From an uncultured Candidatus Saccharibacteria bacterium (lineage in GTDB: Bacteria > Patescibacteriota > Minisyncoccia > UBA6257 > 2-01-FULL-56-20), in contig CAZNYI010000003.1 of assembly GCA_964577245.1 (NCBI GenBank), positions 1 to 33,704 on the forward strand: a stretch of 33,704 bases of DNA. Reading direction: 5' to 3'. How positions within the stretch are numbered: the first letter of the stretch is position 1; each line of letters starts with the position of its first letter. The notes below the pieces were generated by a model. It saw only the letters and a list, made by a program, of their open reading frames with translations. It was not told the origin of the DNA and ran no database searches. Made by a program: the position numbers and the translations under genes. This document shows positions 24,959-33,363 of the stretch, in pieces.

Positions 24959-25633
24959 GTGCCTAAGAAAGTAATTTTGTTTGACTTTGACGGTACGATC
25001 GCACCCACCATTGCCGTGGGCGTTTCTGTTTTTAACGAGCTGGCGCGTGAGCACGGCTTTTTGGAGATCACGCCGAAGAATGCTGTGGATTTGCGGAAAA
25101 AAGGGCCGTGGCAGGTTATGCAGGCGCTCCACATTCCAAAGATGAAAGTGCCGCTCGTCGTCGCGCGGTTGCGCAAAGGGGTGCAGTTGAAGATCGGTGC
25201 GCTTGCGGTGGGGGAAGACATGCGCAAAGTGCTGCTCACCTTAAAACAGAAAGGATACGGCCTCGGCATCGTCACCTCCAGTTCAAAAGCGAACGTGCTT
25301 GAATTTTTGAAAAAGAACCAGTTGGAAATTTTTGATTATATTGAAGCGGGCTCCGGACTTTTCTTCAAGGCGCGCGCGATCAAAAAAGTTATTGCGCGTC
25401 ATCATTTACAAAAGACGGACATCGCTTTTGTGGGGGACGAGATCCGTGACGTGGCGGCGGCGCGCAAGAATAATATCACGGCCGTGGCGGTCGTGTGGGG
25501 CGCCAACTCGCGTGAGGGACTTGCCTCCGAGCACCCTGATTTTATTGCCGACACCCCGCCCGCACTCGCGACGATTTTATCCCGCGTCTCTCGTGGCGAG
25601 CACCACGTCGTCGCGAATGCCGTAGATCGTTAA
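24959..25633 (+). CDS. HAD-superfamily phosphatase (phosphoglycolate phosphatase-like)
   Basis: FDFDGTIA (motif I), GIVTSS (motif II) and VGDEIRD (motif IV). GTG 24959 lies 6 nt after TATAAT 24947-24952. Confidence 0.8.
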   Translation: MPKKVILFDFDGTIAPTIAVGVSVFNELAREHGFLEITPKNAVDLRKKGPWQVMQALHIPKMKVPLVVARLRKGVQLKIGALAVGEDMRKVLLTLKQKGYGLGIVTSSSKANVLEFLKKNQLEIFDYIEAGSGLFFKARAIKKVIARHHLQKTDIAFVGDEIRDVAAARKNNITAVAVVWGANSREGLASEHPDFIADTPPALATILSRVSRGEHHVVANAVDR

Positions 25634-26341
25634 GTGGATTTTTGGGAACGATAGCTGCCTGCCGGTTTTTCGTATTATGTTTTTCATCTCGCGCAACGAG
25701 GGGAGCGTGGTGTCGGTACGCCGCAGTGTTGGCCGTGCCTCACTGCCAAAAATATTCGGATAGATCTTTGGGATGTCGGTATTGATCTCTGCCGGGTATG
25801 CCGCGAGTGGGGCAAGCTTGGCGCCGTATTTTCCGGGCACCTTACGATACCACGGCCCGAACTCGCGCCGAACGAGTTTCTCCCACGCTTCGTACCATGT
25901 GTCATACCGCACCTGATTTTCATACATGGTTCCCGTGCAGATCTTACTCCCACAATGGCACGCGCGCTCACCGCATGTCATGTCTTTCTCCTCCGCCACA
26001 TAAAGGCTGTAATTCACGGTGATCTCTTCTCCTTTGAATATTTTGCGGATGGCAACGTAGAGAATATGCCCCTGGTAAGGGTATGCGTCACAGTTATTGG
26101 CGCATGAATGGTTGACGAGATGAACGCCATCGTGTTTCGGGTTCGCGAGGATGTCATAGCGCAGCCCGCCGCGCATATCATAAAGGCCATCTATAGATTC
26201 GTCGCTGCTATCGGGACGGATGATCGTGCCAAGATAATCGCCAAGCACGGTGCCGGCGTCTATGTCGTGGGTCGCGAACACGCCGCGACCGGTGTTCCGC
26301 AGCGTTTTGATCCGATAATATGATTTCGGAATGATGAACAT
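25577..26341 (-). CDS. SET-domain methyltransferase with a Cys-rich post-SET-like segment
   Basis: GRGVFATHDIDAGTVLGDYLG, VNHSCANNCD, KGEEITVNYS and CHCGSKICTG. Confidence 0.8.
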   Translation of the reverse strand: MFIIPKSYYRIKTLRNTGRGVFATHDIDAGTVLGDYLGTIIRPDSSDESIDGLYDMRGGLRYDILANPKHDGVHLVNHSCANNCDAYPYQGHILYVAIRKIFKGEEITVNYSLYVAEEKDMTCGERACHCGSKICTGTMYENQVRYDTWYEAWEKLVRREFGPWYRKVPGKYGAKLAPLAAYPAEINTDIPKIYPNIFGSEARPTLRRTDTTLPSLREMKNIIRKTGRQLSFPKIHLTIYGIRDDVVLATRDAG

Positions 26342-26404
26342 GGGAAGTAAATATAGTATACCGTTTCATTTGCGTTCTTGCATGGCGGGTGGTAATTTTT
26401 GTAT

Positions 26405-28111
26405 ATGAAGGAAAAACTGATCCCATCGGAACCGCACTTGCGGAGTGTTGAAAAAACCCTGCTCCTTTTGGGATCGGAAGAACTTCCAGACGGCACTTCG
26501 GTCAACTGGAAAGATCTCCACGATAAAGTGAAGCCATATCATTCAATGTATGAACTTACGGAGAATGTGCGGGAAGCAGTGCGTGAGTATGTAGCGAGAA
26601 AGATACCGAAACTGAAAGATGCCGTTCCTGCAATTGGGGAATTGGGGGAAGAAGAATTATTGGATGCGCTGACGCACAATTGGTACGAAACCGTAGAAGA
26701 GGAAACGGGCGGGCAGCGCCGCGAAGTTTTGCTTGCGGAGGCGGCGCATGTGGTGAAGCGGATAGAAACACTCGCAGAGCGAAAACTATTGCAAAGTGCT
26801 TCTCCTGAACAACTTCGCGAATTAGACGTAGAGCCTTCCATGCGAGACCTGCTTGTTGATGTTCTGGAAATTTCGGCAAAAGCAGATCCGCTTTTCGTAA
26901 GATTTCTGGCGTTTTCGCAATTGAGCAAAAAACCTCCGGAGGGGGTTCAAATGACGGGAATCCGGCTTGAGAACGATCCCACCGCGCATACCATTGCGGA
27001 ACTTTTTCCGCACGAGACGCAATTTATTTCGGAGCGGCTTCGTGTACTTTCCCAAAAAGAAGCGGATTGGAAAAAATATCCGGGCGGCGATGTCTTTGCG
27101 CACTATTTAGAGACGCTCGGTAAATTTTTCGGTACCGCGGACACAACGGAAGCCGCAAAGCTTTACGATGAGCTTATTGGATATTACAAAGAAGTCGTTG
27201 CGAGCGGCTTCCCGGTGCTTCTTACGCCGACGACCGAAGGTCATTATAAGCCACCGTATTTGGATCCGGAGCTTAAGGTGTTGGTGTCAAATTCAGAAAC
27301 AAAGACCGAAGAAGCGGCGTTTATGAGGGCGCAAGGAATGCTTGCGGAAAGCTTGGGAGAGATTGACGAAGAAGGGTTCAAAAAGGACGTGCTGGACCAC
27401 GACGTGAGGGTTTCTTTGGTGCTTGGTGGTTTTGGATCAAATCTGATGTTCCCCGGAGTGGCGCAAGAGGAGCCGGCATACCTTCTTTTCCTCAATGAGC
27501 AGGTCCGTGTCTATGATTCCCGATTCCCTTCGTACCTTGATTTTATTGGGAACGCAAAGGGTTCATTTGCGGAACTTCCGGAACAGGAAAAGAAAGAATA
27601 TATAGAACGGATGTCGCGCATGGCAACCATGCTCCATGAGTTCGGCCATCCGGTGCACGCACGGAAGTCGGAAGAGAGCCAGCGTTTGGGGGATGCGCCG
27701 CTCATCGCGATAGACGAAGTAAAGGCAGAAACGCTTTGGCGCGCCCTTGTTCCTTCGATGATCGAGAAAGGTCTTGTGGGCACGCGGGAGCAGTGGGCGG
27801 AGGCGATGCTCGCCGTGTCGCTTTTGTATGTGAACGACCAGCCCGATGGCGATTCCTATTATTCCGCCGGCGTTTATAACTTGAACACGCTTTTTGAAAA
27901 AGGGATCGTAACTTTTGAGAACAATAAAGTGGTAATAACCGATTTTGACGCGTACTATGTTGCGATGAAAGAAGATGCGGTCGGCGTGCTTGCGCTGTTT
28001 AGCGACGAAACCATGACGGAACGCAAAGCGTCCGCGTGGATCAAGGCGCAATGCGCGCCAAACGAAACGGTCCAAAAAGTTATTGACTTTGTGCGGAAGG
28101 CGTCCGGTTAG
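26405..28111 (+). CDS. zinc metallopeptidase, HEFGH motif, possibly M3/PepF-like
   Basis: MLHEFGHPVH is followed by acidic residues (IDEVKAE) about 25-30 aa downstream. The size (about 568 aa) and motif position are similar to oligoendopeptidase F. Family assignment is tentative. Confidence 0.5.
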   Translation: MKEKLIPSEPHLRSVEKTLLLLGSEELPDGTSVNWKDLHDKVKPYHSMYELTENVREAVREYVARKIPKLKDAVPAIGELGEEELLDALTHNWYETVEEETGGQRREVLLAEAAHVVKRIETLAERKLLQSASPEQLRELDVEPSMRDLLVDVLEISAKADPLFVRFLAFSQLSKKPPEGVQMTGIRLENDPTAHTIAELFPHETQFISERLRVLSQKEADWKKYPGGDVFAHYLETLGKFFGTADTTEAAKLYDELIGYYKEVVASGFPVLLTPTTEGHYKPPYLDPELKVLVSNSETKTEEAAFMRAQGMLAESLGEIDEEGFKKDVLDHDVRVSLVLGGFGSNLMFPGVAQEEPAYLLFLNEQVRVYDSRFPSYLDFIGNAKGSFAELPEQEKKEYIERMSRMATMLHEFGHPVHARKSEESQRLGDAPLIAIDEVKAETLWRALVPSMIEKGLVGTREQWAEAMLAVSLLYVNDQPDGDSYYSAGVYNLNTLFEKGIVTFENNKVVITDFDAYYVAMKEDAVGVLALFSDETMTERKASAWIKAQCAPNETVQKVIDFVRKASG

Positions 28112-28146
28112 CCCAAAGATAAATTTTCGTGATATATTACTAAAGT

Positions 28147-28590
28147 ATGAAGCGCGACTTTACGCATGCTCTCGTGAGGGATCTCGAAGAGAATGTCTAT
28201 TGCCGTCTGCGCCCATCAAAGGTGCACGGCGTTGGTATTTTTGCGATCCGCGATATTCCAAAGGGAAAGGATCCGTTCAAAAGTTTTTTGCCGTATAAAT
28301 TCGTCGCGGTTCCGGCCGCTTCGGTATTTGATAATCCCCATATTGATCCGGCGGTGAAGGAGTTTGCGAGCGATATGTATTCGGTCATGAAAGGCAAGCT
28401 CTACCTTTATAAAGGAGGCATGAACGGCATCGACATCAGCTTTTTCCTGAACCATTCCAAAAAACCAAATCTGACCGTACGGAAAGGCGGAGAGGCCTTT
28501 GTTACCGCGCGGAAAATAAAGAAAGGGGAGGAGCTTTTTTCCGATCAGAGCACCTATTCGGAGAATTTTGTTGATACGCGAAGAAGCTAA
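28147..28590 (+). CDS. small SET-domain protein
   Basis: HGVGIFAIRDIPKGKD, FLNHSKKPN and IKKGEELF. The extended -10 TGaTATATT lies 8 nt upstream of the ATG. Confidence 0.65.
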   Translation: MKRDFTHALVRDLEENVYCRLRPSKVHGVGIFAIRDIPKGKDPFKSFLPYKFVAVPAASVFDNPHIDPAVKEFASDMYSVMKGKLYLYKGGMNGIDISFFLNHSKKPNLTVRKGGEAFVTARKIKKGEELFSDQSTYSENFVDTRRS

Positions 28591-28595
28591 CGGCA

Positions 28596-29507
28596 ATGGA
28601 GCAATTTAACGACACGCTTGCGGAGCAATCACGGATAGAGCGGGCGATCCAGAAATATGGTTATGCGTCCGAGCATAATTTTTGGTGGTATCAATATTAT
28701 CAATATTGGTATAACCCGCCGCAGCGCAATATTTTCGTGGAAACGGATCACGGTGCGCTCTTCACGGCGTATAACGAGCGCGACAACGAATATTTTGTTG
28801 TATTTGATCCGATGGCGCCGGAGCAGTTCCGCGTCCCACTTCTTATGGAATATATAACATGGGTATTTTCAAACACTTCCGCGAAGAAGATCTGGTTTCA
28901 GCTTGAAAAAGGCGCGCGGCCGGCATTCTTGCGCGCCCTGCCGCCGTCATGCGCTTCCCGCCGTATCTATTACACTATGGAATCGCCGATCTACGACCTC
29001 CGAAAGTTCGACCCGGCGCTTCCGGGCGGTCACTACAAGACCCTGCGCAAAGAAATGCACAAATTCTACCGCGAACATACGGTTACCGTAGCGGACGCGA
29101 AAACGTATGAAGATCGCGAAAGTCTGCACGCCATCGTGAACCATTGGAAGAAGAAGCGCCCCAACCACGAGCGGGGAATGATGGGGGTGTATCACCAGAT
29201 GATAGACGGCAATTTTGAAGGTACGAAGGAGGCGCGCGTTTTTTTGGTGGATGGGGTTCCCGCCGGCATCAACGCCGGATGGATGATCCCGAATAGCGAC
29301 CGCTTTTACGGTGCGGTCGGCGTCCACGATTATTCGGTTGATGATCTTGGCGCGATGCTGTATCTCGAAGATTTAGTGTGGTTGAAGGCACACGGTTACC
29401 GCGAAGCGGACATGGGCGGCGGCGAACGATCGCTCACGGCATTCAAAAGTAAATTCCAACCGCAATCTTTTTATGAGACGGTGGTCTTTTCTGTCGCAAA
29501 GAAATGA
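28596..29507 (+). CDS. DUF2156/MprF-C-like or Fem-like GNAT-fold transferase, tentative
   Basis: The C-terminal GGGERSLTAFKSKFQP resembles the FK-x-KF-x-P block of aminoacyl-phosphatidylglycerol synthase C-domains. About 300 aa. By eye only. Confidence 0.4.
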   Translation: MEQFNDTLAEQSRIERAIQKYGYASEHNFWWYQYYQYWYNPPQRNIFVETDHGALFTAYNERDNEYFVVFDPMAPEQFRVPLLMEYITWVFSNTSAKKIWFQLEKGARPAFLRALPPSCASRRIYYTMESPIYDLRKFDPALPGGHYKTLRKEMHKFYREHTVTVADAKTYEDRESLHAIVNHWKKKRPNHERGMMGVYHQMIDGNFEGTKEARVFLVDGVPAGINAGWMIPNSDRFYGAVGVHDYSVDDLGAMLYLEDLVWLKAHGYREADMGGGERSLTAFKSKFQPQSFYETVVFSVAKK

Positions 29508-29534
29508 GGTATGGTAGTTATATAGGATAACGAT

Positions 29535-30959
29535 ATGGAAAAAGAGAAAGAGGGTGCGACGATAGTGAAAGAAGCGATTGTTGAAACAACTGCGCCAGTG
29601 GCGGTTGTTTCGGCTCCGGTGGTTGCGCCCGTCGTTGCCCCCGCTCCCGCCGAACCGGAAAAGTTCTGCAAGAAGTTTCTTTTCGTGACCGACGAAGCGC
29701 TCGTGGTGGATTTAGCATGGAAGGTAAAAGAGGAGGGCAACGAAGTGAAGATGTATATCGGCAATGAAGACGACCAGGATATCGGCGACGGTTTTTTTGA
29801 AAAAGTGGATGACTGGAAAACGTGCGTTGACTGGGCGGACGTGATCGTGTTTGACGATGTGATCGCCGGCGACGACGGCTTCGGGAAAGTGGCGGACGAG
29901 CTGCGCGCGAAGGGCAAATTGGTGGTGGGCGGGAGCGACTATACCGACCGGCTGGAGATAGACCGCGAGTTCGGTCAGCAAGAGATGAAGGCTGCGGGCA
30001 TGCTTGTTTTGGCGCACTGGGACTTTGATAACTTCGGTGATGCGATAGAATTTTTGAAAGGAAATCCGGGGCGCTATGTCTTCAAGCCGTCCGAGGGCGA
30101 CCTGGATTGGCACATGAAGAATCTTCTCTTTATTGGCCAGGAAGAAGATGGCAAAGACCTGCTTGAAGTGTTAGAGCACAACCGCAAAAGCTGGTCGCGC
30201 AAGATCAAGCGGTTCCAGCTGCAAAAGGTGGCCACGGGCGTTGAGATCGCGGTCGGCGCGTTCTTCAATGGCACCGATTTTATCACGCCCGTCAATATCA
30301 ACTTTGAACACAAAAAATTATTCCCGGGCGACATCGGTCCGCCGACCGGCGAGATGGGCACGCTCATGTTTTGGGCAGACCCAAATAGTTTTTTCCAGGC
30401 GACCCTCGGCAAAATGTTGGAAAAACTGCGCGCGAGCAAATATGTGGGCTATATCGACGTAAATTGCATCGCGAACGCTCGCGGCGTGTATCCGTTGGAA
30501 TTCACCTCGCGCTTCGGATATCCCACGATCAGCATCCACATGGAAGGTATCTTGAGCCCGATGGGAGAGTTCCTTTATGCGCTTGCAAAAGGGGAGCAGT
30601 ATCCCTTGAAAACCCAAAAAGGATTCCAGGTGGGCGTGGTGATCGCAACGCCGCCGTTCCCGTATCGCGACGACAAAATGTTCCAGGTCTATAAAGATAT
30701 TTCCATCCTGTTCAAAAAATCCAATCTGGACGGCGTCCATCTTGGTGATGTAAAAATGGTGGACGGCGACTGGAAGCTTGCCGGCAAGAGCGGCTATGTG
30801 CTCGTCGTGACCGGTTCAAACACCACCGTGGAGGATGCGCGCCGTCAGGCCTACCGCCGCATAGAAAACATAATGCTTCAAAATATGTTCTATCGCACGG
30901 ATATCGGCGCGAAGTGGTCGGGAGAAAGCGACGAGTTGCACACGTGGGGCGTCTTGTAA
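29535..30959 (+). CDS. PurD-like ATP-grasp ligase with an Ala/Pro/Val-rich N-terminal linker
   Basis: LAWKV and NFEHKKLFPGDIGPPTGEMGT parallel the PurD blocks ALAWKL and DHKR...GD-x-GPNTGGMG. The N-terminus carries APVAVVSAPVVAPVVAPAPAEPE. Confidence 0.65.
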   Translation: MEKEKEGATIVKEAIVETTAPVAVVSAPVVAPVVAPAPAEPEKFCKKFLFVTDEALVVDLAWKVKEEGNEVKMYIGNEDDQDIGDGFFEKVDDWKTCVDWADVIVFDDVIAGDDGFGKVADELRAKGKLVVGGSDYTDRLEIDREFGQQEMKAAGMLVLAHWDFDNFGDAIEFLKGNPGRYVFKPSEGDLDWHMKNLLFIGQEEDGKDLLEVLEHNRKSWSRKIKRFQLQKVATGVEIAVGAFFNGTDFITPVNINFEHKKLFPGDIGPPTGEMGTLMFWADPNSFFQATLGKMLEKLRASKYVGYIDVNCIANARGVYPLEFTSRFGYPTISIHMEGILSPMGEFLYALAKGEQYPLKTQKGFQVGVVIATPPFPYRDDKMFQVYKDISILFKKSNLDGVHLGDVKMVDGDWKLAGKSGYVLVVTGSNTTVEDARRQAYRRIENIMLQNMFYRTDIGAKWSGESDELHTWGVL

Positions 30960-30971
30960 TACACTATTCCG

Positions 30972-31328
30972 ATGACCATTGATGAATTTTTGGCGAACGA
31001 TCTGCGGGTGGGGAAAATTGTGGCGGCGGAGCGTGTGGAAGGTTCGGAAAAACTTTTGAAGCTGCAGGTGGACCTTGGCGAGGGCGGTGCCGAAGGCGCG
31101 CCCGCGGATGCAGCACCCGTGCTGCGGCAGATCGTGTCAGGGATCGCGAAGGCCTATGCGCCGGAAGCGCTCGTGGGCCGCGAAGTGGTGATCATCGCAA
31201 ATCTTGAGCCGCGCACCATTATGGGCCTGCCGAGCCAAGGGATGATCCTTGCCGCACACGGCGAAGGCGGCGTGCCGGTTTTGCTTAAGCCGTGGGCTGC
31301 TGTTCCGCCCGGCTCCAAAATAACATGA
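30972..31328 (+). CDS. tRNA-binding domain protein (CsaA/Trbp111-like)
   Basis: DLRVGKIVAAERVEGSEKLLKLQVDLGE...VIIANLEPRTIMGLPSQGMILAA matches the tRNA_bind OB-fold signature. Confidence 0.8.
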   Translation: MTIDEFLANDLRVGKIVAAERVEGSEKLLKLQVDLGEGGAEGAPADAAPVLRQIVSGIAKAYAPEALVGREVVIIANLEPRTIMGLPSQGMILAAHGEGGVPVLLKPWAAVPPGSKIT

Positions 31329-31840
31329 ACAAAACAATCTCTATAATCCTCTTTGTGGTGCTCGCGGTCGCGGTGGTCGGCGCGGCGATGTGGTACAACA
31401 ATAAATCCGATCAAGCGATGCAGCAGGCGCAGACGCAGGCGGCGATCATTGCTCAGCAGGAACAAGCACAAACCTTAGCAAAAATTATGCAAAACTTTAA
31501 AATAACCGACACAGTGGTGGGGACGGGCGCGGTAGTGAATAACGGCGACACGGTGAACGTGCTCTACACGGGCACGCTTCCCGACGGCACAGTGTTTGAC
31601 GCATCGTCAAAGCACGGGAACCAACCATTCAGCTTTACGGTGGGCGCGCAAAACGTTATTCAAGGATGGGATCTCGGCGTGGTCGGCATGAAGGTAGGCG
31701 GCACGCGCGAACTTACGATCCCGCCGGAACTTGGTTACGGCGCAGGTGGCTATCCGCCGATCATTCCGGGGAACACAACGTTGCACTTCACGATCCAGCT
31801 TCTTTCCATTGCGACGAGCTCGCCGACGAGCACGCAGTAG
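31325..31840 (+). CDS. membrane-anchored FKBP-type peptidyl-prolyl isomerase
   Basis: VLYTGTLPDGTVFDAS, VIQGWDLGVVGMKVGGTRELTIPPELGYG and LHFTIQLL. N-terminal helix ISIILFVVLAVAVVGAAMW. ATG 31325 overlaps the upstream TGA. Confidence 0.85.
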   Translation: MNKTISIILFVVLAVAVVGAAMWYNNKSDQAMQQAQTQAAIIAQQEQAQTLAKIMQNFKITDTVVGTGAVVNNGDTVNVLYTGTLPDGTVFDASSKHGNQPFSFTVGAQNVIQGWDLGVVGMKVGGTRELTIPPELGYGAGGYPPIIPGNTTLHFTIQLLSIATSSPTSTQ

Positions 31841-31873
31841 GTTTGCAATAAACGGGGTATATAAAAAGCACAT

Positions 31874-31903
31874 GGGTGTCCGTAAGGACACCCGTTTGTG
31901 TTA
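31874..31903 (+). terminator. intrinsic terminator
   Basis: Stem GGGTGTCC 31874-31881 / GGACACCC 31886-31893 with a GTAA loop, then GTTTGTGTT. Confidence 0.8.
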
Positions 31904-32976: not shown

Positions 32977-33363
32977 TTACGTTTTGAGTTTTTTGCCAAC
33001 TTCCGACGGAGCGTCATAAAAAATGACGCTTTTCGTTATCCCCATCATGGTTTCAGAAATATCGGATCCGGTTTTTGCTATAACGACGATCGGTATGTTT
33101 TTGGCAAACGCATAGCCGGCTTCTATCCCGAGTCCAACCCCTTTTTCGCTAAGTTCAACGATCAACACGTCAGCGCTGTCGATTTCTTTGAAAGTGATGC
33201 TCATAAGCTCCTCGGGCGAAAATTTTTGTTCACCCCATTTTTCATAATCGCGAACCATGACTCGCGTTTCAATGCCGACGGCGCGTAACGAGTCCGACAG
33301 TTGTTCGATCCGTTCCCTATTGCTAAAATCCGGATGGAATTTGATTGCAAGATATGCCTTCAT
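32977..33363 (-). CDS. nucleoside 2-deoxyribosyltransferase-like protein
   Basis: SADVLIVELSEKGVGLGIEAGYAFAKNIPIVVI resembles the D-x-G-T-x-x-E-x-G-Y-A block of the family. By eye only. Confidence 0.55.
   Translation of the reverse strand: MKAYLAIKFHPDFSNRERIEQLSDSLRAVGIETRVMVRDYEKWGEQKFSPEELMSITFKEIDSADVLIVELSEKGVGLGIEAGYAFAKNIPIVVIAKTGSDISETMMGITKSVIFYDAPSEVGKKLKT

Follow-up and report, generated by a model that had tools for sequence, protein, structure and literature searches.

What does a gene named after an enzyme of purine synthesis do in a bacterial locus that has no other purine gene? The question is raised by a 33,704-nt window of DNA from an uncultured Candidatus Saccharibacteria bacterium, a complete 33.7-kb contig of an ultra-small patescibacterium of Parcubacteria type, in which a PurD-like ATP-grasp gene, herein termed E, lies among genes for two SET-domain proteins (SET1 and SET2), a HExxH metallohydrolase (B), a DUF2156-like transferase (D), a tRNA-binding protein (F) and an FKBP (G). 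Judged from its sequence, E is a PurD-derived ATP-grasp protein and not PurD, the glycinamide ribonucleotide (GAR) synthetase. With about even confidence, we further propose that the functional unit consists of the SET protein(s), D, E and B, and not of the seven-gene array, and that this unit would serve an amine-directed ligation, aminoacylation, methylation and hydrolysis.

Open reading frames (ORFs) were called over the whole window, and domains were assigned with Pfam and NCBIfam at their curated cut-offs. An earlier note, made from the letters of this DNA, had listed ORFs, spacings and motifs that were all found again, the former at their coordinates and the motifs in the translations, and its domain calls were borne out by profile searches that placed all products above the curated cut-offs, with the exception of B. 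The absence of a further purine-pathway gene was confirmed over all non-overlapping ORFs of the window with 70 aa or more. Only the count of seven same-strand ORFs has to be corrected, as six lie on the plus strand and SET1 is divergent. The locus reads as follows.

25577..26341, minus strand: SET1 (A), 254 aa, Pfam SET 64.2 bits, divergent from the B gene
26342..26404, no strand: intergenic region between SET1 and B, 63 nt, presumed shared promoter region
26405..28111, plus strand: B, HExxH metallohydrolase, 568 aa, alternative open TTG start at 26399
28147..28590, plus strand: SET2 (C), minimal SET-domain protein of 147 aa, Pfam SET 35.8 bits
28596..29507, plus strand: D, DUF2156/LPG_synthase_C-type tandem GNAT, 303 aa, LPG_synthase_C 45.3 bits, Acetyltransf_6 26.5 bits
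29535..30959, plus strand: E, PurD-derived ATP-grasp ligase (predicted), 474 aa, GARS_C 43.5 bits, GARS_A 29.3 bits
30972..31328, plus strand: F, stand-alone tRNA_bind OB-fold protein, 118 aa, Pfam tRNA_bind 91.1 bits
31325..31840, plus strand: G, FKBP-type peptidyl-prolyl isomerase, 171 aa, FKBP_C 107.8 bits, hydrophobic N-terminal anchor at residues ~5-22
31872..31895, both strands: bidirectional terminator-like hairpin 3' of G, 10-bp stem with 6 GC pairs

The intergenic gaps from B over SET2, D and E to F, read from the window, are 35, 5, 27 and 12 nt, and F and G overlap by an ATGA at 31325-31328, likewise read directly. As the hairpin behind G is the sole convincing one, and as a hairpin search found no comparable terminator-like structure within 26405-31840, it is plausible that B through G are co-transcribed. 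No strong sigma-70 match was found in the divergent region 26342-26404, and its role as shared promoter region is therefore presumed. A candidate for a separate promoter of F and G lies at 31320-31347.

How much of PurD is left in E? The scaffold is retained: E is collinear over its full length with 11 PurD structures at ~25% identity, and it keeps the HK(K/R), GD-GP-TG-MG, R-F-G and C-terminal YR-DIG motifs. With TIGR00877, the equivalog model of PurD, it reaches 94.7 bits at a cut-off of 288. The substrate site was compared by profile alignment to the structure 2yw2, using human PurD numbering and residue roles taken from PMC8880213 and PMC2978367. The PurD motif GGREHA (R13/E14; phosphate site and ribose of phosphoribosylamine, PRA) is replaced by x-L-S-x-D-L-A in the E family; it aligns to the family consensus s-l-e-a-l-s-a-d-l-a-w-k, where the protein of the window reads TDEALVVDLAWK. 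The GLAAGK B-loop, which contacts the gamma-phosphate, is absent, and PS-x5-DMKG stands in its place. Of the residues of the glycine site, D217 has become E258 and E297 has become T331, and R292 is retained as R326; the proposed general base D295 is replaced by Y329. In the alignment to the PurD structures, K184, K260 and E322 are kept, and the metal-ligand asparagine of E-x-N is Thr324. Across an alignment of 12 bacterial and archaeal sequences, none of these replacement residues varies. The family also has many invariant Trp residues, which together with E258, Y329 and T331 would form a pocket. Since the residues that bind PRA and the amino group of glycine are replaced, E most likely joins another carboxylate to another amine. 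The earlier reading of this product as something other than a housekeeping PurD is substantiated by the score far below the cut-off and by the rebuilt substrate site. The genomic context is in line with this, as no other pur gene occurs in the window or, on either side, among the 25 most frequent families tallied for the 147 immediate neighbours of E homologs.

The E family, which carries the database name phosphoribosylamine--glycine ligase, is large and unusually well conserved. More than 7600 proteins match at an E-value <0.001, the best 120 being 63-89% identical, and at least 595 stretches with E homologs were found in species-representative genomes. Across Patescibacteria (Ryan-, Uhr-, Staskawicz-, Buchanan- and Nomurabacteria) and DPANN archaea (Nano-, Woese-, Pace-, Micr- and Aenigmarchaeota), the proteins are 55-70% identical to E of the window. 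Four of the archaeal loci (L016, L018, L029, L041) together carry fibrillarin, Nop, prefoldin, an archaeal CCA-adding enzyme and an archaeal helicase domain as archaeal markers. E homologs of 54-61% identity also occur on nine contigs (L046, L050, L065, L071, L072, L074, L077, L078, L080) with labels such as Nitrososphaera, Omnitrophota, Gemmatimonadota, Burkholderiales, Chitinophagales, Bdellovibrionales and Gammaproteobacteria. The family either extends past the CPR (Candidate Phyla Radiation) and past DPANN, or these metagenome-assembled genomes are mislabelled or contaminated; some of the taxon labels (Gammaproteobacteria, Gemmatimonadota, Nitrososphaera and others) could stem from mis-binning. 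The first 45 residues of E (29535-29670) form an Ala/Pro/Val-rich low-complexity extension, APVAVVSAPVVAPVVAPAPAEP, which is limited to the closest relatives, most homologs beginning near residue 40-46. Six IMG/VR contigs (L166-L171) encode E-like proteins of 29-38% identity that are nearer to E than true PurD is, one of them within a 761-aa fusion (L170, 5540-7825), and beside the viral and GenBank-phage E-like proteins (23-38% identity) no SET, D or B neighbour was found.

Which of the neighbouring genes belong to E? In 80 loci centred on E homologs, in which all flanking ORFs were clustered, SET genes are the only neighbours of E that cross lineages. Where E has 2 kb or more of flanking sequence to its left and to its right (56 loci), a SET gene lies within 2 kb of it in 21, archaeal loci included. 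The density of SET genes per 10 kb is 1.89 at 0-0.5 kb from E, 1.05 at 0.5-1 kb and 0.58 at 1-2 kb, and beyond 2 kb there are 3 in ~746 kb. SET genes occur both upstream and downstream of E, each on either strand, which makes four arrangements, and several subtypes are involved, namely the ~250-aa SET1, the ~140-aa SET2 and a ~131-aa type; in one locus labelled uncultured archaeon, three different SET genes follow in tandem directly downstream of E (L041, 3457-4894). Orthologues of SET1 (~245-253 aa) adjoin E homologs in seven loci (L001-L005, L008, L023). The reverse test, starting from metagenome homologs of SET2, found E adjacent in 8 of 11 cases with adequate flanks at 41% identity or more, and in none at 40% or less. 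The SET2 subfamily is dedicated to E neighbourhoods. In three loci, a class I S-adenosylmethionine-dependent methyltransferase of ~200 aa is encoded directly upstream of E (L005 740-1339, L006 611-1246, L007 1976-2575), in L005 with a SET1-type gene just beyond it.

The two SET proteins of the window differ in their motifs. SET1 has the motif set of SET-domain lysine methyltransferases (GxG, NHSxxPN, ELxxDY), as seen in GRGVFA, NHSCANNC and GEEITVNY, together with the post-SET cluster CHCGSKIC (CxCx4C) and a conserved C-terminal extension of ~110 aa. SET2 retains the remaining SET motifs, including NHSKKPN, and reads EELFSDQ around residue 134 (codon ~28546-28548), a position at which 90% or more of 16 family members have tyrosine. 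SET1 retains the canonical motif, and SET2 of this window may be catalytically impaired or altered. Three side observations concern the wider relatives. In L007, a very distant B-like protein of 602 aa (hidden Markov model E-value 1e-21) precedes the class I methyltransferase. In L097 (362-2185), a SET2 homolog of 43% identity stands beside a very divergent E-like protein, 26% identical over its N-terminal 164 residues and without sequence match in the PDB, which hints that the pairing of SET and ATP-grasp proteins extends to a second ligase subfamily. Since the eukaryote-like, low-complexity protein P0370 (581 aa) carries two SET2-type domains with the signature TYCRLxP...GVxxxAxRDIPxGxxPF, the SET2 subfamily has relatives beyond prokaryotes.

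D would add a tRNA-dependent step to this ligase-methyltransferase pair. The earlier note had read it as DUF2156-like, and its AlphaFold2 model (pLDDT 94.6) confirms the tandem-GNAT fold of aminoacyl-tRNA-dependent transferases, which occupies the whole length of 303 aa. Foldseek places it next to the alanyl- and lysyl-phosphatidylglycerol synthase domains, full-length MprF and the soluble DUF2156 protein 2hqy of Bacteroides, followed by FemX, Sbb17 and Sba18 (alanyl-phosphatidylglycerol synthase 4v34 at an E-value of 8e-15; 2hqy with TM-scores of 0.68-0.71; then 4v36, 5vrv and FemX 7z5y). The 45.3 bits with Pfam LPG_synthase_C, at a gathering score of 27.5, cover profile positions 12-168 of 298 only. 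Between the two GNAT domains, residues 145-160 form the basic helix GGHYKTLRKEMHKFYREH, in which K148 and R151 are invariant in 37 sequences; a positively charged inter-GNAT helix is the hallmark of binding to the acceptor stem of aminoacyl-tRNA (PMC7334510, PMC6103681). D also carries the C-terminal FKSKF motif (FK-KF), which is common to LpiA. The protein is soluble and has no membrane, flippase or aminoacyl-tRNA synthetase domain; its family comprises 127 matches of ~300 aa, the 120 listed homologs spanning 217-340 aa. D is therewith a putative aminoacyl-tRNA-dependent aminoacyl transferase.

The linkage of D to E holds well outside the closest relatives. In three of three distant homologs that were looked up (40-47% identity), D lies upstream of a GARS_A/GARS_C gene, in the orders SET-D-D-E (L081), D-E (L082) and SET-D-D-B-E (L083). 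D is directly upstream of E also in L001-L004, L030 and L090, and in a locus labelled Woesearchaeota (L029) it is found 1.5 kb from E. The putative tRNA-dependent step is limited to a Parcubacteria-centred subset.

What kind of hydrolase is B? Its motif HEFGH comprises residues 411-415, and Glu438 lies inside DEVKAE; H411, E412, H415 and E438 are invariant in 33 homologs. Pfam gives a weak match to DUF7897/CiaB only (29.4 bits). With the AlphaFold2 model (pLDDT 91.4), the top four PDB matches in Foldseek are dipeptidyl peptidases III (DPP III), with 6eom at an E-value of 1.3e-8 and TM-scores of 0.51/0.55, and 5zum also among them; DPP III enzymes of the short type with a pentapeptide motif, from Caldithrix and Corallococcus, rank before human DPP III, and the Fe/pterin protein PolE follows. 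The moderate TM-scores would be compatible with a hinge-domain enzyme of the two-lobe DPP III fold and are not decisive. The two motifs resemble HExxH/EExKAD of family M49, in which the second motif provides the third zinc ligand, with a spacing from His to Glu of 23 residues versus ~59 in the enzyme of Caldithrix abyssi (CaDPP III). Because of this shorter spacing, and as there is no match to Pfam M49 in B, we term it DPP III-like and not a member of M49; since the fold search also retrieves the non-peptidase PolE, peptidase chemistry is not certain. The earlier suggestion of Peptidase_M3 finds no support in the fold search and was dropped.

The B family has 71 matches, and all names given by the sources are Patescibacteria/CPR. 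Of nine B contexts, six are clusters with D and/or E, in a shuffled gene order: SET1 | B-SET2-D-E in the window, D-B-E with a B homolog of 44% identity (L083), D-x-B with no E within 6 kb (L084), E-C39-B with a convergent D (L085), GNAT-E-B-SET (L173) and SET-E-HPF-D-B (L174). Eight B homologs are 758-799 aa long (P0264, P0268, P0269, P0271, P0273, P0277, P0280, P0290), three of which match Pfam PF00583, and in the two that were retrieved, P0268 and P0280, the extension is a C-terminal GNAT-type domain. A free homolog of this GNAT (33% identity) is encoded directly upstream of E in L173 (2902-3411), so the fusion and the free protein tie B, GNAT and E together. Weaker copies of the B-type GNAT are encoded close to SET1 (L002, L003) and upstream of E (L028). 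Unknown proteins of ~515-670 aa near B in L084 and L085 were considered as a further shared component and set aside, as they are unrelated to each other.

F and G are of a different kind. F is a stand-alone tRNA_bind OB fold of the MetRS-beta/Trbp111/CsaA type and reaches 112.4 bits with TIGR00399, the model of the beta subunit of methionyl-tRNA synthetase (MetRS), at a cut-off of 116.65. Among the 80 loci, F lies within 2.5 kb of E in L001, L004 and L043 only, and G stands beside E in L001 only. In L001, the nearest complete genome, genes for an ECF sigma factor and a DUF5667 anti-sigma-like protein separate F and G from E. As both are neighbours of E only in its closest relatives, F and G are probably co-transcribed passengers, i.e. 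housekeeping genes that share the transcript in this lineage, and their proposed role as parts of a pathway is not supported.

Which reaction scheme would connect the remaining proteins? E, the hub of the module, retains the scaffold and presumably also the acyl-phosphate chemistry of PurD: it would activate a carboxylate as acyl phosphate and couple it to an amine other than PRA. The SET proteins, or the class I methyltransferase in some lineages, might then methylate that substrate or product at a lysine-type amine, as their linkage to E suggests. In a mostly parcubacterial subset, D could use aminoacyl-tRNA to add an amino acid; some lineages may instead rely on the small GNAT for an acylation. 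By analogy with hydrolases encoded beside aminoacyl-lipid synthases, B may cleave an amide bond, either for maturation or for turnover of the product. Every enzyme class of the module works on amines or amides, and a joint amine/amide reading is therefore the simplest one. Candidate targets are lysines of a protein, glycans or lipid head groups of the envelope, and polyamine-like amines. DPANN archaea generally lack murein, and the occurrence there of E with SET proteins, the centre of the module in bacteria and archaea alike, speaks against a role specific to murein and agrees poorly with a target in the cell wall or an envelope lipid. Envelope-related neighbours (MurB, BacA, PMT, glycosyltransferases, UDP-glucose dehydrogenase) and a few polyamine genes are suggestive, each of them being limited to certain clades.

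How does the idea of a tRNA-dependent ligation and modification pathway, as put forward in the earlier note, stand after this analysis? E is not a housekeeping PurD, and the linkage of SET, D, E and B is conserved in distant lineages beyond this genome, so neither of the two outcomes that the note itself had set against its idea has come about. The fold of D, the non-PurD nature of E and the linkage of the four components speak for such a pathway, and F, G and the M3 peptidase fall away from it. Several points weigh against the amine-directed unit that we propose in its place. The activities of all components are predicted, and a common substrate or product is hypothetical. With Thr324 in place of the E-x-N asparagine and without the PurD B-loop, the catalytic competence of E is an assumption, and SET2 of the window has a glutamine (Q134) where the catalytic motif has a near-invariant tyrosine. 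In about two thirds of the E loci, neither SET nor D nor B is nearby, and E may either work without partners or have them encoded elsewhere. Many of the SET-E loci lie within one parcubacterial block (MurB ... E-HPF ... SecA) and are for this reason not independent events. Two B contexts (L172 and the P0280/P0290 fusions) are without D, E and SET nearby, and no fusion of SET with E or another ATP-grasp protein exists among the 150 best SET2 relatives, which are all stand-alone or tandem SET proteins.

What alternatives exist for the proposed unit? The plainest one, an ordinary cluster in which E is a genuine PurD and its neighbours stand there by coincidence, can invoke the database name and the full-length alignment with PurD structures. 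It is hardly credible in view of a TIGR00877 score that stays at a third of the cut-off, the replacement of R13/E14, D217, D295, E297 and GLAAGK by residues invariant in the family (roles: PMC2978367), the lack of other pur genes in the window and among the 147 immediate neighbours, and the strong, bidirectional linkage to SET, D and B. More is to be said for a single non-ribosomal, tRNA-dependent ligation pathway of all seven genes that acts on an envelope lipid or cell-wall precursor, with F delivering the tRNA and the anchored FKBP as accessory factor. The six same-strand genes are indeed tightly packed without an internal terminator, D has the fold of aminoacyl-phosphatidylglycerol synthases (aaPGS) and FemX, genes for MurB, BacA, YceG, PMT and glycosyltransferases recur in the wider neighbourhoods, and F is near E in L001 and L004 too. 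We nevertheless regard this pathway as distinctly improbable: F and G are absent from the neighbourhoods of E, D and B beyond the closest clade, a sigma/anti-sigma pair parts them from E in L001, and F falls just short of being an equivalog of the MetRS beta subunit. E and SET are paired in generally murein-free archaea, D has neither a membrane nor a flippase domain, and known DUF2156/Fem enzymes need no separate tRNA-binding protein (PMC6103681).

The main rival, which we consider unlikely, divides the genes into two units. E and the SET proteins would form a regulatory pair, in which E itself or an unrelated protein, for instance a nucleoid or ribosomal one, is methylated, and D and B would be an independent synthase and hydrolase of an aminoacyl conjugate that happen to share a syntenic island with them. 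Such a division agrees with the fact that most E loci are without D and B and that L084 has D and B with no E within 6 kb. Genes for aaPGS are typically paired with a hydrolase of their own (PMC6103681, PMC7334510), characterised prokaryotic SET enzymes methylate proteins (PMC3980110), and the genes for HPF and SecA often occur in synteny with E. However, D lies upstream of E in all three distant homologs and in nine other loci, and is close to it in L174 too; in L083 B separates D from E, in L173 it separates E from SET, and the GNAT that is fused to B elsewhere is free and adjacent to E in L173. This interleaving, together with the B::GNAT fusion, argues against two unrelated units. Within the preferred reading of one amine-directed unit, a more specific version is possible and is put forward tentatively: E and its dedicated SET proteins would install a new methylated, amide-linked modification on a conserved target, as a trait shared and exchanged between ultra-small Patescibacteria and DPANN archaea, to which some Parcubacteria add a tRNA-dependent aminoacylation and a DPP III-like trimming.

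Other genes recur beside E. As each of them occurs in a single clade, the Tgt, GerMN-like, HPF, MurB, SecA, DUF192, YceG and saccharopine-dehydrogenase-like genes were treated as inherited synteny and set aside as parts of the module. The HPF/S30AE gene lies directly downstream of E in nine loci (L020, L044, L049, L051, L056, L061, L063, L081, L174), an adjacency that belongs to one large parcubacterial clade with the order MurB ... E-HPF ... SecA and is probably inherited. Polyamine-related neighbours, i.e. a saccharopine-dehydrogenase-like protein (possibly of the carboxynorspermidine/homospermidine type), AdoMet decarboxylase, deoxyhypusine synthase and an arginase-family protein, were found downstream of E in L013, L017, L028 and L081, in the P0280 and P0290 contexts and at single other E loci; this theme was not built on, the genes being too few and each mostly limited to one clade. 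In the window itself, a HAD-family hydrolase gene (24959-25633) converges on SET1 with a 3' overlap of 57 nt. The contig further contains tRNA-Glu(CUC) at 129-204, a GmrSD_N-type restriction-like protein at 533-1801, a weak nucleoside 2-deoxyribosyltransferase-like protein at 32977-33363 and, in ORFs that were not pinned down, two NUDIX proteins and a dCMP/cytidine deaminase-like protein. The remaining gene content has the flavour of nucleotide salvage, not of de novo purine synthesis. A defence or phage origin was rejected, as the PADLOC defence library gave no matches and the PHROG phage library no meaningful ones.

How does the module compare with known systems? PurD (EC 6.3.4.13) has the four-domain ATP-grasp architecture that is predicted for E, and shares with it the full-length collinearity and the motifs named above; E differs from it by its score below the equivalog cut-off, the changed substrate-site residues, the lack of a pur context and the 55-70% identity across two domains of life. 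The aaPGS systems, with the C-terminal DUF2156 domain of MprF, the hydrolases AhyD and VirJ/PA0919 and the fungal ErdS/ErdH, have the tandem GNAT, the basic helix and FK-KF in common with D, and the gene for the hydrolase is linked to that for the transferase as B is to D (PMC6103681, PMC7334510). Their hydrolase is of the alpha/beta type, whereas that of the module is a DPP III-like metalloenzyme; D has 303 aa without flippase or aminoacyl-tRNA synthetase domain, whereas MprF has an N-terminal integral-membrane flippase fused to its synthase, and the module adds an ATP-grasp ligase and SET proteins. FemX and Sbb17/Sba18, the next-best relatives of D (TM-scores ~0.55-0.66), use an amine as acceptor of the transferred amino acid, as would be apt for a pathway with an amide ligase and a peptidase-like enzyme, but D is only 12-14% identical to them, and there is no context of peptidoglycan precursors or antibiotic biosynthesis here. 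With the short DPP III enzymes of family M49 (Caldithrix abyssi, Corallococcus), B shares the mostly helical two-lobe build, the HExxH pentapeptide and an (E/D)E-KAE-like motif (PMC5805324, PMC9820243), at ~13-14% identity, a TM-score of ~0.5 and the motif spacing of 23 versus ~59 in CaDPP III (PMC5805324). In the eukaryotic TTLL12, a SET-like domain and a TTL-type ATP-grasp domain occur in one unit, as SET and E do here (PMC3520985). This is an analogy and not a homology, as the TTL clade is not PurD-like, TTLL12 is a fusion and not an operon, and its own function is unresolved. None of these closest known systems combines all four parts. In the literature searched, no description of the module or of its gene linkage was found; the purD mentioned in PMC12647753 and PMC12892359 are ordinary purine genes.

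A lone “purD” is routinely reported from genomes of Patescibacteria and DPANN archaea that have no other purine synthesis. The present analysis suggests that the E family is a distinct ligase, unusually well conserved in both domains of life, with a rebuilt substrate site and with dedicated partners, namely SET proteins, a transferase of the tRNA-dependent type and a DPP III-like hydrolase. A systematic annotation error of “purD” in CPR and DPANN genomes would thereby be corrected, and prokaryotic SET proteins would gain a metabolic or modification context beyond the mimicry of host chromatin. The module offers a handle on unexplored biochemistry in organisms whose biology is mostly dark. If the modification reading is true, the label of the lone purD is wrong and masks a signature pathway of the episymbiotic lifestyle.

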